Part shown: one piece after another, positions 8,386 to 56,376 of the stretch
Layout: each line of letters begins with the position of its first letter
Numbering within the stretch: position 1 is the stretch's first letter
Assembly (NCBI GenBank): GCA_964016885.1
Contig: OZ024742.1
Location: 212,164,001 to 212,228,000 of the forward strand
Origin: Eledone cirrhosa
Lineage: Eukaryota
DNA length: 64,000 nucleotides
Direction: 5' to 3'
Made by a program: the position numbers and the translations under genes
Notes under the pieces: generated by a model
The model's input: only the letters and a program-made list of their open reading frames with translations
Told to the model about the DNA's origin: nothing
The model's database searches: none

Positions 8386-8449
8386 GCATTAGGCGATTTA
8401 GCGATGTCTCTCTATAATTCTTAGTCTTTCTTTTTAGATAGATACATAG

Positions 8450-9095
8450 ATATGCTCCGATGGATGTGTAACAGTAATATACGTGAACGACAAAGCATAA
8501 ATGAATTGAGAGAGAGACTGAGCATAAGAGGAATCAAATGCTGCGTGCAGGAGAGGCGGTTACGCTGGTATGGACATGTGATGCGTATGAAGGATGACAG
8601 CTGCATAAAAAGGTGCAGAGCACTAGAAGTTGATGGAAACCGCGGAGTGGGGAGACCCAAGATGACTTGGGATGAGGTGATAAAAGCCGACCTTACCCAA
8701 CTACACCTCTCAAAGTCAATGACACACGACCGTGACTTCTGGCGTCACGCAGTAATACAGGGTACCCGACCTCCCATGGGTACATGCTGAAGCATATAAA
8801 CAATATGCCCCCCCCCCCCCCACCGCAAGGTGGTCGTGGAGGTGCCACGGCAAAAAAGCACCCAGCCCACACTGTAAAGTGGACGTGTAGGCGCCACGAA
8901 AAAGCACCCAGCACTCACTGTAAATGAGGTTGGTGTTAGGAAGGGCATCCAGCTGTAGAAATCAAGCCAGATCAGTTCCTGTATGAGCAAGGCATGGTCA
9001 GCCGACCAGACACTGCCCACAACAGGACAACCCGTCTAACCCATGCTAGCGTGGAAGAACGGACGTAAAACGGTGATGATGATGATGATGATGAT
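8450..9095 (+). mobile_element. 5'-truncated RTE LINE: RT C-terminus, downstream UTR and (TGA)n tail
   Basis: ORF MLRWMC...ERRLRWYGHVMRM...RGVGRPKMTW is the typical RTE thumb/C-terminus; the element ends in gatgatgat. Confidence 0.9.
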
Positions 9096-9198
9096 ATAAC
9101 GTTGCGCCCTTATAATATCTGTCTGTATGTCTGTTGTCTGCATGTGTATATATGTATATATAGCGTGTGTATATATATATATCATCATCATCATCATT

Positions 9199-10882
9199 TC
9201 ACATCCACTCTTCCCTGCTTGCAAGGGTGGGACGGGTCTTATTCAGCACAGCATCTCTCCACTCGTCACGGTCCTTCGTCATCTCCACCGTGAGCTTCAA
9301 CGATCTGAGGTCTGTTCTCACCACCTCCGCCCATGTTTTTCGTGGTCTACCTCTACCACGTCTTCCTTCAACTGGCATTTCCTGGCACTTCTTCACCCAT
9401 CGGTCATCCTCTTTGCGCATCACATGTCCATACCACCTCAGTCTCCTCTCCCGTACACTACATTCTATCCCTCTCAGACACAATTTCTCTCTCAACACAT
9501 TCATGTTGGGTCGTTCACGCACATTTACACTGCACATCCAACGGAGCATGCTTGCCTCATTTCTCTCTAGCCATCGCATATCCTCTGCAGTTGCTGCCCA
9601 TGTCTCACTACCATGCAGCATCGTGCTCCTCACAGAGGCATCATACAACTGGCCTTTCGTACGCAGGGAGAAACCCTTCTTCGTCAGCAGAGGAAGCAGC
9701 TCCCTAAACTTCTTCCAACCCGTCCTTATTCTAGATACTATGGCCTCGGAACACCCTCCTCCCATGCTAATCTGATCTCCTAGGTACTGGAAGCTATCCA
9801 CCACTTCTATAGCACCCTCCTGCATTTGAAAAATGTGTCTATCAATGCGACTTCTACTGTCTAATTTCCCTGTACATCTACTGCATACATATTTCTCCCT
9901 ACCTGTTAGTTTGCCTGCTATCCCGCTACATCTCTTGTGTACCCAGGATCTGCATTGTGTGCATTTTATAGAATTTATGCCAGTTCCTTTTCTGCATATC
10001 AAACATGGCCATTTCCCTGACGGAATCAGAGTTTTGTCCCCTTTTCTACTCATCAACACTTTTGTCTTAGCTAGGTTCAATCTCAGTCCTCTTGCTTACA
10101 ACTGCTGTTTCCATAGCCAGAATTTATTCTCTCGCTCCTCTACTGATTCTGCTATAAGAACCAGATCGTCAGCATAAGTATAGTGGCTTATTTTTCTCTA
10201 AGAACCTCTCTTGCAATTGTCTCACCAAGAAGAGGGCATCTGTTGTACTCTTCCCAGGCACAAAACCAAACTGCATCTCATCTAGTTTGACCCTTTCTCT
10301 AATTAGTTGTGCTAATATCCTTTCTGCCACTTTCATAACCTGATCCATCAGTTTTATACCCCTATAATTGCTCCTCTCCAGAGCATCCCCTTTACCTTTG
10401 TAGCAATTTATGAGAATACTGCTGCACCAGTCTTTGGGTACGACACCACCATATATAGCCTGATTGATGATGCGTGCAACCAGTTTAGTGCCTACGTCCC
10501 TTGATGCCTTCAGCATCTCAGCAACTATTCCCGATGGTCCAGCAGCCTTACCATTTTTTATTTCCTTAATCGCCTCTTGGACCCTATATTCGTCAATCTC
10601 AAAAGCTGGTCCCTCTGTCGGATCTACTAAGGGTAATTTCTCTCTCTCCCATTCGTTCTCCACATTCATCAGTCTCTCATAATGACATTTCCAGGCCTCC
10701 TTTTTCTGGTCATTCGTGACAGTAAGTACACCGGCATCATTCCGGACACATTTATCTCCAACAACATCCTGATTTGCATTGACACACTGCCTTGCAATGT
10801 GGAACACTGCACGCCTCTGATCTTCCCGTCGCAGAACATTGGCAAACCGCCTACTCTCAGCCTCCCTGCGTGCTAAGTACAC
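9199..10882 (-). pseudogene. RTE ORF segments 2-3: reverse transcriptase with inserted PHD-like Cys/His finger
   Basis: Two ORFs in different frames. CLIC..CTQC..WVHKRC..CSRC lies between the YADD region and YLG. Confidence 0.9.
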
Positions 10883-10998
10883 CTGACGTCTCGCTTCTCT
10901 CTTAGCGGCTGTATATTCTTCCCTACTCCCACCCTTTTTCCAAGCCTTCCATGCTAGTCTTTTGTCTCTAATGGCCTATCTACTGTGCTGTTCCACCA

Positions 10999-11967
10999 TC
11001 AGGTCACTCTCTGTCTGGTTGGAGCTCTGCTCCAGCCACAAGTTTCATCAGTAGCCTGTAGCAAGTTGTCACGTAAGAAATTCCAGTTATTATCTATGTC
11101 ATACATCTCTAAATCGTCATATACATCTTGAAGGGCTTTCCTAAATTTGTATTTTAGTGAAAGGTCTTTTAGCTTCCAGACCTTTCTTCTCCACACCTTC
11201 CTGTATGTCTCATTCCATCTCTTGCATACTGAGATATCACTAACGACTAACTTATGCTGTGGAGTACATTCTTCCCCAGGGTATGCCTTGGTATTAGACA
11301 CTATCTGCCTGTCCCGCTGCCTAACTAGTAAGAAGTCAATCTGGCTTATGTGCTCACCAGATTTGTAGGTTATTAGGTGATTGGCAGGTTTCTGGAAGTT
11401 TGTGTTGCAAATAGTCAATGTACCAGCATCACAAAATTCAAGAAGTCTCACTCCTTCATTTCTTGAACCGTAACCGTGCCCACCATGTACCCCAGTGTAA
11501 CCATCCTGGAGCTGTCCAACATGACCATTGAAGTCCCCTGCTAGCATAACGATGTCTCCGTCCTCTGTCATTGCGGTTGTTTGTAAAAGTTGCTCGTAAA
11601 AGCAGTCTTTCTCCTCTTTGCCTAGGCCTGCTTGGGGAGCATAGGCAGAGATGATTGTCAGTAGTCTCCTGCCTACAACTAATCTAAGCTTAATTATTCG
11701 ATTACTAACTCGAACTACCTCTATTGTCTTACTGATCCATTTCTCAGCCAGGAAAATGCCTACTCCCCCTAACCCATCATCCTTACCTACCCATAAACTA
11801 AAGCTAAGATGTTTGCCTACAAGTCTCGCAGAGGCACCTCTCCATCTCACCTCTTGCAGGCAGCACACATCCACATGCCTTCTCTCCAGCATCTCCGCTA
11901 TTTCAGCAGATCTACCTCTGAGAGTGCCAACATTAAGTGTTGCAACTCTGAGATGCGACATCTTCAT
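10999..11967 (-). pseudogene. RTE ORF segment 1: apurinic-like endonuclease domain
   Basis: 322-aa ORF with exonuclease-endonuclease-phosphatase motifs; ends by frameshift at the RVT/WW motif. Confidence 0.92.
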
Positions 11968-12442
11968 ATTTTATTGTTGTTCCTATTTGTTGCTGTGCTG
12001 ATAAGCGTTTTGGCATTGATACACTGGTTGGATGCCTTTCCTAACACCAGCGCCACTTTACAGCATGGACTGGGTGCTTTTATTTGTGCTACCAGCACTA
12101 GAGAGGATGTATTACTAGACTCAAGGGCCCTCTCTACCCCTCCATTTTACAGCACGGTCATAACCCCCCACCCCCCCAAAAAAACCCATTTATTGACACG
12201 ACACACACAAACACTCATGCATACAAACTACAAACACACACGCCACTCACACACCAACACTCATTCATGCATACAAACACACACACCACGCACACACACA
12301 CATATATATATATATTACCAGCAGTACTGATACAAAATCAAAATCATGTCAACTGTTGACTTTTCCCAGTCCAGTTCAGTTTTTATATAATAATAATAAT
12401 AATTATTATTATATATAATATATATATATGTATATATATATA

Positions 12443-19884: not shown

Positions 19885-20370
19885 TTTAAGTAACAGCTGT
19901 ACTAAGAGTGGGAAATGAAATTTTGTTTCATTTTTTCCGTTTATAGTTTTCGGTGCACCCGGCCGATTAACCCACTCGATATGCAAATTGGGCTACTCAG
20001 CCATTAATATGCATAAGGAAAGTATATACTTTCGGACGTTCAACTATCTGACAGTAAGGTATACGTTGCTGACGATAGCTAACAAGCTAGAAACTAGTAC
20101 AGCGTTCCTTTGTCAGTGTTGAACAAACGAGCAACGGTGGTTGCCAGACACTACGGCTTAATACGGGATGTTTGTTTACAAACACACCGAGCATTATAAT
20201 AAATGTTCGGTGAATCCAGACGTACATATATATATATGTGTGCATGTATATATATATATATACATACTACTGTACATCTGTATACATATATGTATGTACG
20301 TGTACATACTTATATTTGAGTAACAGCCTTACTAAGAGTGGGAAATGAAATTTTGTTTCATTTTTCCATT

Positions 20371-23800: not shown

Positions 23801-24830
23801 CATCATCATCATCATCGTTTAACGTCCATGTTCCACGCTTGCATGGGTTTGGACGGGAGTTTTCCCACTTGAGGCAAGAGTGGTTGTCTTGCTCGCATAG
23901 GACTGTCTGGCGGGTTTTCTACAGCTGGATGCCCTTCCTAACACCAACCACATTTACAGTGTGGGACTGGGAGGTTTTTACCATGTTGCCTACACGGCCA
24001 CATTACAGCGTGGACTGTGTGTTTTTTTTGTCGTGACACCTACACGATCTCATTTGTTTCGGCCTGGATGTTGTGGCACCAACATAACTTTACATTGAAA
24101 GGGGCGGTGTGGATGGGGTGGGGATGGTGGGACGGGGGTGTATTTTGTTAGAGATGCCTACTGACTGTAGTACGTTTTACTTTGTATTTAGGTAAGGCGG
24201 GTCTTCTCTATTACTGAGTACCGCCAAAGATCTCAGTCCAGTGAAATTGTCTTGGAGAGGTGTAAGTGTGTGAGGTCGGAATTTATCAGGTCGTCCCAGG
24301 TTTTTCTGAGTCTGCCTACTCTGCGGCTACCGTCTATCTTTATTGCCCTGCACTTTTTTATACAGCTGTCGTCTTTCATGCGCATCACGTGACCATACCA
24401 ACGTAGCCTTCTCTCGAGTAAACAACATCTGATCCCTCTTATTTCTAATTTTTCCCTTAGTTCGTTTATGCTTTGCCGTTCGCGTATATTACTGTTACAC
24501 ATCCAGCGGAGCATGCAAGCTTCGTTCCTCTCTAGTCTGCGTATATCCTCTGCACACAATGCCCAGGTCTCACTGCCATGCAACATTGCTGTTCGTATGC
24601 AGGCATCATACAGCCTGCCTTTCATTTTTAGGGAGAACCCTTTAGCGGCTAATAGTGGTATAAGCTCTCTGAACTTTTTCCATCCAGTTCTGACTCTAGC
24701 TACTGTACTTTCAGAGCACCCTCCCCCACTGCTGATTTTGTCACCCAGGTAACGGAAGCTGTCCACTATTTCTATAGATCCCTCTGCGCAATTGAAAGAG
24801 CTAGTATTTGGTGGGCACTTGCTGCTACTT
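23799..24830 (-). mobile_element. 5'-truncated RTE LINE (family A): RT C-terminus, UTR and (TGA)n tail
   Basis: ORF 24233-24841 IEIVDSFRYLGD..ARVRTGWKKFREL..MLHGSETW..RLRWYGHV. Confidence 0.93.
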
Positions 24831-25172
24831 ATAATATACAATATAATATATATATATATATATATAATATATAATATATATAATATATAATATATATAAT
24901 ATATATATATATAATATATATATATATAATATATATATATATAATATATATATATATAATATATATATATATAATATATATATATATAATATATATATAT
25001 ATAATATATATATATATAATATATATATATATAATATATATATATATAATATATATATATATAATATATATATATATAATATATATATATATAATATATA
25101 TATATATAATATATATATATATAATATATATATATATAATATATATATATATAATATATATATATATAATAT

Positions 25173-25235
<63 letters not shown>

Positions 25236-25262
25236 TAATATATATATATTATATATATATAT

Positions 25263-52419: not shown

Positions 52420-52689
52420 AACAAAGAATGTAGGTTTGACTTGTGGTCAGTTCACAAGGGCAATAAGTAGCAAGAACCCTCAATATACAACCGCCTTCAA
52501 ATGCTCAGAGGGTTCGGCCAAAGTGGTAGATAGTTTCCGTTGCCTGGGTGACCAAATCAGTAGGAAGGGTGTTCTGGAATTACAGTAACGAGAGTGGTTG
52601 GAGAAAGTTCAGGGAGCTACTACTGTTACTAACTACAAAGGGGGTTTCCCTCAAAATGAAAGGCAGACTGTATGATACAAACAGTAATG

Positions 52690-52747
<58 letters not shown>

Positions 52748-52865
52748 CCGCCAGACAGTCCTATGCGAGCAAGACAACCACTCTTGCCTCAAGTGGGAAA
52801 ACCCCCGTCCAAACCCATGCAAGCGTGGAACACGGACGCTAAACCTGATGATGATGATGATGATA
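52420..52865 (+). mobile_element. RTE RT fragment interrupted by (TA)n and followed by a family A 3' tip
   Basis: VVDSFRCLGDQIS..GWRKFRELLLLLTTKGVSLKMKGRLYD; 52746-52863 matches 16393-16510. Confidence 0.85.
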
Positions 52866-52984
52866 TCTATATATGTATATATATATTTATTAAAATAACA
52901 GATTAAAGTTTAAGCTTATCGAGCCCTCTTTCGATTTTAGTTTTCAATTTTATTATTATTACTATGTATATATATATATGTATA

Positions 52985-53387: not shown

Positions 53388-54616
<1,229 letters not shown>

Positions 54617-55517
54617 GTTGGCAGACCTCGCAAGGACTCTATATCTTTGATATATTGTTTTTGTTTATGCCACGAAACTACGTAGTCGAGGAATTTAGGA
54701 GCAGTTTAGGTATGATACATTTTATTACCAATTATATCTAAATGTTTCTTCTCTCTTCATAATGTATTTTTAACTCTGATACTGGTTCAGTCTGGTTCAA
54801 ACTGAACTGGTCTGTCCCAGTCATTCATTGAGCAACATCGGTGAAGTTGGCACCCTTAACTCGCAGTTGGGTGCGGATGCATTCATGTATATATGTGTGT
54901 GTCCGCATGTATCTGTGTGTTTCTAAATATATTAATAACTCCCTCTGGTCGAGCAATCTTTGAAGTGTGGGGACAACTGGAAAGCTTCCATTACTCGTAC
55001 TTCTCGCCTTCTTCACTACCTCTTCTACGGCCTCGATATGAATACCCCCTCCGCCTCCGTGGTATTTTCTTCGTGGTTATAAGAGGCTTAGCTCTGTTTC
55101 TCGACCGTTATATCGCGTGACTATCTCCCCCTCCGCCTTTTGGGATTCTTTCTCACGTCGTGTAGACGCGTTCTTGAGACTAGTAAAATGAGGTATCCTC
55201 TTGATAAGTTGGCAGACCTCGCAAGGACTCTATATCTTTGATATATTGTTTTTGTTTATGCCACGAAACTACGTAGTCGAGGAATTTAGGAGCAGTTTAG
55301 GTATGATACATTTTATTACCAATTATATCTAAATGTTTCTTCTCTCTTCATAATGTATTTTTAACTCTGATACTGGTTCAGTCTGGTTCAAACTGAACTG
55401 GTCTGTCCCAGTCATTCATTGAGCAACATCGGTGAAGTTGGCACCCTTAACTCGCAGTTGGGTGCGGATGCATTCATGTATATATGTGTGTGTCCGCATG
55501 TATCTGTGTGTTTCTAA

Positions 55518-55523
<6 letters not shown>
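54617..55523 (+). mobile_element. 1.5 tandem units of a 591-bp non-coding hammerhead-containing repeat, inserted in (TA)n
   Basis: 54617-54932 appears identical to 55208-55523 (offset 591); HHR at 55196-55283. Confidence 0.85.
55196..55283 (+). ncRNA. Type I hammerhead ribozyme, U3-A8 core variant
   Basis: Stem I UCCUC/GAGGA; core UUGAUAA (55201-07); stem II GU(U)GGCA/UGCCAC with a long loop; GAAA (55265-68); palindromic stem III A-CUACGUAG-U; predicted cleavage after GUC at 55278. Confidence 0.75.
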
Positions 55524-55560
<37 letters not shown>

Positions 55561-55567
<7 letters not shown>

Positions 55568-56376
55568 TGGAATAAATGCTCTGAAACAGCGATATATATG
55601 TGAATATAGACATAGAATATTCGAAAATATTCTGTATGTTTATAATAAACATTTTGAAGACCCAATCGCTATAGAATAGAATACGTCACGTATTACAATT
55701 AGATTCTCGATAAAAGCAAGGGAAGTAAATCTACGCGTTTCATTCTTATTAGAAATCGTCAGGACTACATATCCAGTGCTTTCATCGAGAATGACACAGC
55801 TAGAGACTTATAGAACACTTAGCTGTGTACAGGAACTGGTTTGAAAGAGCGGTTGCCGGTCCGGCAGAAATTAGAAATTGGAATAAATGCTCTGAAACAG
55901 CGATATATATGTGAATATAGACATAGAATATTCGAAAATATTCTGTATGTTTATAATAAACATTTTGAAGACCCAATCGCTATAGAATAGAATACGTCAC
56001 GTATTACAATTAGATTCTCGATAAAAGCAAGGGAAGTAAATCTACGCGTTTCATTCTTATTAGAAATCGTCAGGACTACATATCCAGTGCTTTCATCGAG
56101 AATGACACAGCTAGAGACTTATAGAACACTTAGCTGTGTACAGGAACTGGTTTGAAAGAGCGGTTGCCGGTCCGGCAGAAATTAGAAATTGGAATAAATG
56201 CTCTGAAACAGCGATATATATGTGAATATAGACATAGAATATTCGAAAATATTCTGTATGTTTATAATAAACATTTTGAAGACCCAATCGCTATAGAATA
56301 GAATACGTCACGTATTACAATTAGATTCTCGATAAAAGCAAGGGAAGTAAATCTACGCGTTTCATTCTTATTAGAA
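55561..56376 (-). repeat. 2.6 inverted copies of the 311-bp hammerhead unit
   Basis: Reverse complement of the downstream array. Complete HHRs at 55725-55768 and 56036-56079; a third is truncated in stem II at the junction. Confidence 0.95.

Follow-up and report, generated by a model that had tools for sequence, protein, structure and literature searches.

The 64-kb window, which is the whole stretch of Eledone cirrhosa DNA that was analysed, carries at 54617..55523 (+ strand) a non-coding, 5'-truncated insertion of about 1.55 head-to-tail 591-bp units. It lies in a (TA)n microsatellite, with the left part of the target at 53388..54616 and the right part at 55518..55562, and TA microhomology leaves the limits of the insertion uncertain by a few bases. 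Self-comparison of the window showed 315 identical bases at an offset of 591. One full unit (54933..55523, +; 42% G+C), whose base 591 is the outer 3' end, contains a type I hammerhead motif with a U3-A8 core at 55196..55283 (+). The upstream copy is a truncated hammerhead half (54617..54692, +) that has helix II, GAAA, helix III and the site C54687 and lacks the helix I 5' strand and the core, so that, if a dimer formed within one molecule, cutting by the intact core would be expected at C54687, not C55278. The preliminary description overlooked the carrier element, which explains the motif: the latter is one copy within a large repeat.

Every part of the hammerhead listed in that description was found in place on the + strand. 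These parts are the helix I 5' strand TCCTC (55196-55200), the core TTGATAA (55201-55207, UUGAUAA in RNA), the helix II 5' strand GTTGGCA (55208-55214) with T55210 bulged, 44 nt separating the helix II strands (55215-55258), the helix II 3' strand TGCCAC (55259-55264), GAAA (55265-55268), the helix III octamer CTACGTAG (55269-55276), TC 5' of the cleavage site (55277-55278) and the helix I 3' strand GAGGA (55279-55283). Cleavage is predicted after C55278, which is unit base 346. Hammerhead numbering and topology are established, and the order of helix I 5', core, helix II, GAAA, helix III, UH and helix I 3' is that of type I. The motif has the hammerhead elements NUGANNA, GAAA and UH with a Watson-Crick pair between positions 3 and 8. 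A strict type I U3-A8 descriptor matched the window once (55201) and gave no match in 150 block-shuffled windows. Rfam returned no hammerhead family match for the whole window at the gathering score or for 54600-56400 at E<=10, which agrees with the earlier expectation that standard searches miss the motif; CUGANGA descriptors and Rfam overlook the hammerhead of the 591-bp unit. The motif had also been called unrelated to its neighbours, and BLAST indeed found no similarity to the adjoining 311-bp array or to the element at about 20 kb. The isolated 101-nt motif region is not unusually stable (fold z -1.08 against shuffles), so support for the motif comes from comparing copies. The long loop II described earlier exists as a 44-nt span, but it folds as a two-part stem behind an internal loop. 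This extension of helix II consists of two stacked stems (55221..55252, +) and shows many G-U/A-U exchanges between subfamilies.

Exact patterns for the UUGAUAA-type core gave at least 7,152 matches in the 3.0-Gb assembly, 772 in which the helix II bulge is U and 6,380 in which it is a different base, all counted as motif copies and not as insertions. Reversed control patterns gave no match in the same genome. A 161-base query returned 917 candidates in the 3.0-Gb assembly, 40 of which were scored, with 41 full-length matches that were 100% identical; many of these were spaced 591 bp apart. About 210 loci were read out of the thousands of matches. The repeats are dispersed tandems with one type I hammerhead per unit, as is required of retrozymes, and the unit codes for no protein, as is required of the non-LTR kind; no long ORF belonging to it was found in any subfamily examined. 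The 591-nt monomer lies outside the 170-400 nt of retrozymes, which is a typical range and not a strict definition. Contigs from four sequencing runs (type unrecorded) cover the unit and show the head-to-tail joint, in which tandem DNA and a circle are indistinguishable. These contigs contain no variants at >=2% at 55201 or 55206, and the bulged base 55210 is mostly C in them. A metagenome scan gave no matches.

The conservation of the U3-A8 core was followed in older subfamilies with 67-80% unit identity. One older set was obtained with a helix III anchor (30 of 203 loci fetched, six dropped as young or duplicate), and two others by similarity to diverged copies (30 loci each), with queries that included the core and thus brought a mild bias. 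Copies with U3 number 49/50, 23/25 and 37/37 in the three older groups, and those with A8 51/51, 25/26 and 37/37, counts in which overlapping loci may enter one copy twice, while the flanks differ by 21-35%. The majority base is unchanged in all three at U3, U4, G5, A6, A8, A9 and G10.1, and likewise at C11.1, G12, A13, A14, A15.1, U16.1 and C17. These 14 core and closing positions are constant, whereas the flanks changed at 16/75-26/75, 56/261-77/261 and 43/163-49/165. The unconstrained N7 changed from U to A in the oldest group. The claim that the type I fold is under selection, with the U3-A8 pair kept, is thus upheld by three older groups with flanks 21-35% different, and the U3-A8 core is old and has become fixed in the lineage.

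The genome search for core variants that had been suggested as a check showed changes at positions 3 and 8 to be rare and scattered. Single changes at position 3 gave 18 matches (9 C, 5 A and 4 G), none of them with G8, and those at position 8 gave 14 matches in 12 places; these single changes are scattered decay. In hammerheads in general, U3-A8 can replace C3-G8 as a compensatory double change. Three genome patterns for a C3-G8 relative, with three anchors, gave no match each, and a C3-G8 sister or ancestor was rejected on this basis. Since the C3-G8 form was not found, the U3-A8 swap is fixed and the covariation step is not visible in this family. Of the proposed compensatory double change, the keeping of the U3-A8 pair is supported, while a change within the family is not seen. 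Two tandem pairs (G000:C5:39920687-39921301 and C19:18237722-18238330) have the same A8 mutation in both units, which implies that copying, at least on a local scale, took place from a unit whose 3-8 pair was disrupted.

The helices were compared in an alignment of 28 copies picked by hand, where 97.4% of cells are paired in the hammerhead structure, against 37-56% for slid controls, and five pairs change on both sides. Two of the two-sided changes lie in helix I and one in helix III, while proximal helix II is invariant; the result is a three-helix fold, open at helix I and backed by covariation. This covariation represents few subfamily-level events among related sequences, so shuffle counts overstate it. 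Among 170 copies, helix I occurs as TCCTC/GAGGA in 126, TTCTC/GAGAA in 10 and TTCCC/GGGAA in 12. In the same set, the helix III octamer is CTACGTAG in 127 copies, CTGTACAG in 17, CTGCGCAG in 7, CTGTGCAG in 3 and CTGCGTAG in 3, so that these five octamers, all self-complementary, account for helix III in 157/170. A hand count of the helix III variants from the older-set anchor search found 90/100 of those listed to be self-complementary.

The self-complementary helix III strand ACUACGUAGU (55268..55277, +) would pair with its counterpart from another copy in the predicted dimer, forming a 10-bp duplex of -12.9 kcal/mol. The centre of helix III changes from CG to UA between subfamilies. A central UA is unpairable inside one hairpin and pairs between two copies, which argues for a dimer. 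Self-complementarity down to the two central bases, as read from the sequence, therefore points to a dimer, and the predicted dimer accords with the known hammerhead dimer model (PMC4209133, PMC6765202).

Two further pairings were considered around the motif. The distal pairing of the preliminary description involves the strands AGTAAAATG (55182-55190) and CATTTTATT (55309-55317), which are present and complementary; its conservation failed, because young subfamilies keep the pair and older ones have the strands changed or shortened. It was rejected for this reason, for its low stability (-5.9 kcal/mol), and because it shares bases with the leader of a predicted pseudoknot that is better conserved. 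In this pseudoknot, the leader UGAGGU (55189..55194, +), as the 5' strand between stem I and stem II, would pair with ACCUCG in the stem II internal loop (55216..55221, +). Of 170 copies, 159-167 retain any given one of the 6 bp; the pair at the end is U-G in 90, U-A in 72 and C-G in 5, and a seventh pair, G-U, is present in 7 copies of the oldest group. In the 28-copy alignment, one pair is two-sided, and the score was reached by 6/500 shuffles, a figure inflated by kinship.

A hairpin is predicted 3' of the cleavage site (55279..55350, +), ending shortly before the first fixed 3' end of insertions genome-wide. It was predicted in 15/15 representatives folded and stops a few bases before unit base 426; its changes are mostly of the wobble type and two-sided in 1/17 pairs. 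Once the monomer has been cleaved, this hairpin would inactivate the ribozyme by taking up the helix I 3' strand. Folded as a circle, the unit reaches -171.6 kcal/mol, compared with -136.0 +/- 5.5 for shuffles (n=40) and -126.7 kcal/mol for the antisense circular unit. A GAGG/CCUC hairpin across the leader and helix I appeared in the circular fold, is absent from the oldest subfamily and was discarded as incidental.

Insertion ends were mapped in copies at least 93% identical to the unit of the window. The 5' ends are spread over the unit. In contrast, the distinct 3' ends outside tandem joints (n=84) fall at unit base ~426 in 43 cases, at ~591 in 37, two of which are variant tandem joints, and elsewhere in 4. 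TA-rich sequence follows in 73/80 of the fixed 3' ends at the cut-off of the script. In 25/26 inverted insertions with both outer ends visible, one arm ends at 420-426 and the other at 591. Both fixed 3' ends lie away from the cleavage site (unit 346), which the arrays cross. In the window, the first fixed 3' end corresponds to 55358 (+), and the 165-nt 'tail' from the first to the second occupies 55359..55523 (+), the insertion ending at the second. Microhomology alone was rejected as the cause of the 3' ends, since a TA-rich stretch near unit base 550 was used by 0/84. Published insertions of Penelope-like elements (PLEs) consist of partial tandems plus an inverted 5'-truncated copy, have a tail of 30-40 bp at one end and favour microsatellites (PMC8557442); the PLE tail is equated with the interval separating two internal RT start sites (PMC11167929). 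The family likewise has tandem and inverted 5'-truncated copies, a one-ended tail and a microsatellite target, as expected for non-autonomous PLEs, and the two fixed 3' ends in inverted insertions match the Penelope 'tail' signature.

These ends bear on whether DNA-level recombination has spread the unit as a satellite-like repeat, in which case the hammerhead would be a chance or dead look-alike. The tandem organisation, the unremarkable local fold and the lack of an Rfam match would suit such a repeat, but the arrays are short and dispersed, with variable 5' and fixed 3' ends and inversions, the folding is strand-specific, and covariation is combined with no descriptor match in 150 shuffles. 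This explanation is largely refuted by covariation, core conservation and fixed ends, and is given almost no credence.

Units within an insertion differ at 84/24,959 bases in tandem and 75/15,165 in inverted insertions, while insertions differ from each other by a median of 1.7% and from the nearest other insertion by 0.39%. Several private variants are common to all units of an insertion and others occur in some units only; in the loci L007 and L032 they occupy only part of the array, which a single circular template does not predict. Judged by the variants within arrays, a circular template and a linear multimer look alike.

A helper PLE can be inferred from the insertion footprint, and PLE ORFs are abundant in the genome. 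A tblastn search with five PLE fragments on 190 loci found PLE protein remnants in 34/190, as expected because TA targets are shared, and placed none as a pLTR-ORF unit; placement was judged by position, with L036 and L050 read base by base. BLAST of the unit against four PLE loci showed no similarity, and no pLTR of an autonomous PLE sharing the unit sequence was found among the 190 loci and these four. The unit could still be the pLTR of an unsampled autonomous PLE, with the copies seen being truncated ends. The other U3-A8 family of the genome is such a pLTR (L205), and the loci read are only about 210 among thousands of matches. Against this, head-to-tail joints at 591-bp spacing have nothing between them, both in the assembly and in the contigs of the four runs, where an autonomous PLE would carry RT and GIY-YIG between pLTRs, and a long ORF is absent from the unit in the subfamilies examined. 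A pLTR origin is therefore improbable.

The L205 locus (G000:C1:36502500-36511000) contains a near-full-length PLE with RT and GIY-YIG Pfam hits and a broken frame, and L210 is a further case. A different U3-A8 hammerhead, with a UUGAAAA core, is present in both pLTRs of the L205 element, which shares no sequence with the 591-bp unit by BLAST. The L205-type hammerhead has 6,229 exact genome matches, often as inverted pairs. The genome thus holds at least 13,000 U3-A8 motifs in two families.

Together, the U3-A8 hammerhead very probably belongs to a 591-nt element that is likely self-cleaving as a dimer and likely mobilised in trans by the reverse transcriptase/endonuclease of a PLE, which would make it a non-autonomous PLE or non-LTR retrozyme. 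In the proposed cycle, a read-through transcript of tandem units would fold helices I and II, made parallel by the leader/stem-II pseudoknot. Two adjacent self-complementary helix III strands would then pair, and each core would cut after C17 of its partner. After release, the 591-nt monomer would take up helix I into the 3' hairpin, and ligation would close it to a circle. Nicking of (TA)n by a PLE protein would let cDNA begin at unit ~426 and 591, one start per target strand, giving 5'-truncated arms of opposite orientation that pass the cleavage site more than once. The direct observations are the number of copies, their tandem and inverted arrangement, the target, the two 3' ends and the conservation and covariation of the fold, and self-cleavage of the unit as a dimer is likely under this model. 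As counterpoints, cleavage in vitro is reported for only 1/9 Xenopus retrozyme dimers (bioRxiv 10.64898/2026.07.22.740005), and the hammerhead of the anole PLE is reported as protein-assisted and, in vitro, as dispensable for insertion (PMC11167929).

Alternatively, uncleaved linear tandem transcripts may be copied, in which case the element would be a non-autonomous PLE derivative whose fold serves as a protein-binding or folding signal or cleaves weakly, and no circle would form. Such copying would fit insertion ends that lie off the cleavage site (unit 346), arrays that cross it, the partial variant sharing in L007 and L032, and the normal insertion of hammerhead mutants in vitro (PMC11167929). 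The two tandem pairs with an identical A8 mutation point the same way, although a mutant core could be carried along if the partner core cuts. However, the catalytic G5, A9, G12, A13, A14 and C17 are kept while N7 is free, and the helix III centre stays palindromic, which is expected for dimer catalysis and not only for shape. Linear copying is therefore regarded as rather unlikely, and the self-cleaving retrozyme is preferred. The constancy of the core and the dimer helix through about 30% divergence argues that cleavage matters in vivo.

Metazoan non-LTR retrozymes form a recognised class (Cervera and de la Pena 2020, PMC7229834), in which PLEs are named as candidate movers, and they have recently been argued to be non-autonomous PLE derivatives (bioRxiv 10.64898/2026.07.22.740005). 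The 591-bp family shares with them non-coding tandems, one type I hammerhead per unit, thousands of copies, a G+C content below 45% and PLEs as the proposed helper (PMC7229834). Unlike the retrozymes described there, with units of about 170-400 nt, its unit is 591 nt long and has a U3-A8 core, a long helix II and a predicted Watson-Crick pseudoknot. Linear and circular monomer RNA is a trait of the class (PMC7229834), and for the 591-nt unit a circular RNA is predicted. In structure, the element agrees with retrozymes except for size.

The U3-A8 core variant is already published, including for Penelope-associated hammerheads. Natural U3-A8 covariation is reported as active in vitro (Perreault et al. 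2011, PMC3088659), and the PLE-related Cercyon variant of Schistosoma mansoni was described in 2014 with about 1,300 hits (PMC4209133). Like the pLTR hammerheads of Cercyon, the present motif has U3-A8, a 5-bp helix I, a long helix II, G10.1-C11.1, a palindromic helix III and a predicted dimer (PMC4209133). Those hammerheads are described as mostly single motifs of truncated autonomous PLEs, whereas the 591-bp units are tandem and ORF-less and have a full 4-bp helix III and a predicted pseudoknot (PMC4209133). Stem I/II pseudoknots are predicted for about 40% of hammerheads, and the tested examples given in that report are type II metagenomic monomers, whereas this motif is an animal type I hammerhead predicted to be pseudoknotted and dimeric (PMC3088659). 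The insertions resemble those of canonical and non-autonomous PLEs in their partial tandems, inverted 5'-truncated copy, microsatellite target, one-ended tail and two fixed RT start sites (PMC8557442, PMC11167929). They differ from the PLE insertions described in these sources in a tail of 165 nt against 30-40 bp and in lacking an RT or GIY-YIG ORF.

The contribution of the family lies in its large graded series, in the covariation of its dimer helix, in the predicted pseudoknot and in a PLE footprint with two clean ends. A joint report of a fixed U3-A8 core, a leader/stem-II pseudoknot and a centre-covarying dimer helix was not found, Lunse et al. aside. It may tentatively be proposed, at somewhat less than even confidence, that this is an unusually large retrozyme with a three-feature ribozyme, whose footprint would be direct evidence, at the genome level, for the mobilisation of retrozyme circles by PLE proteins and not by LINEs, from two fixed priming sites. 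The family bears on which enzyme moves animal retrozymes and on whether hammerheads matter for the cycle; as a substrate it is young and very abundant, both of its ends are mapped precisely, and its subfamilies are graded.

Other hammerheads were seen in the window and in the fetched loci, and the genome is rich in PLE and retrozyme ribozymes. Next to the insertion, at 55561-62599, a 311-bp unit forms an inverted array between TA microsatellites, with about 2.6 copies one way and 20 the other. It has a canonical CUGACGA hammerhead in 20 copies on the + strand (56514-62423) and 2 on the - strand, with a U-U opposition at 10.1/11.1 by eye, and looks like a second retrozyme family. A canonical CUGACGA hammerhead with a 4-nt palindromic helix III at 20063-20105 is a third family, since near-identical motifs occur in many fetched loci. 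Candidate U3-A8 hammerheads with unrelated helices occur at L010:2026, L096:701 and L103:781, and a relaxed scan of L001-L130 showed more than 10 distinct hammerhead families near TA repeats, several with a long helix II. A PLE remnant at L036:1438-3400 has an apparent C-terminal GIY-YIG (by eye; Pfam gave no hit), on account of which its assignment to 'Naiad' was rejected. The 3' repeat of this remnant contains a canonical CUGAAGA hammerhead, and elements closely related to the remnant are present in many loci. The window also contains a broken LINE at 8425-11970 (- strand piece 9199-11970) with endonuclease and RT frames, which we take to be RTE-like, and shorter pieces at 24233-25261 and 52530-52898.
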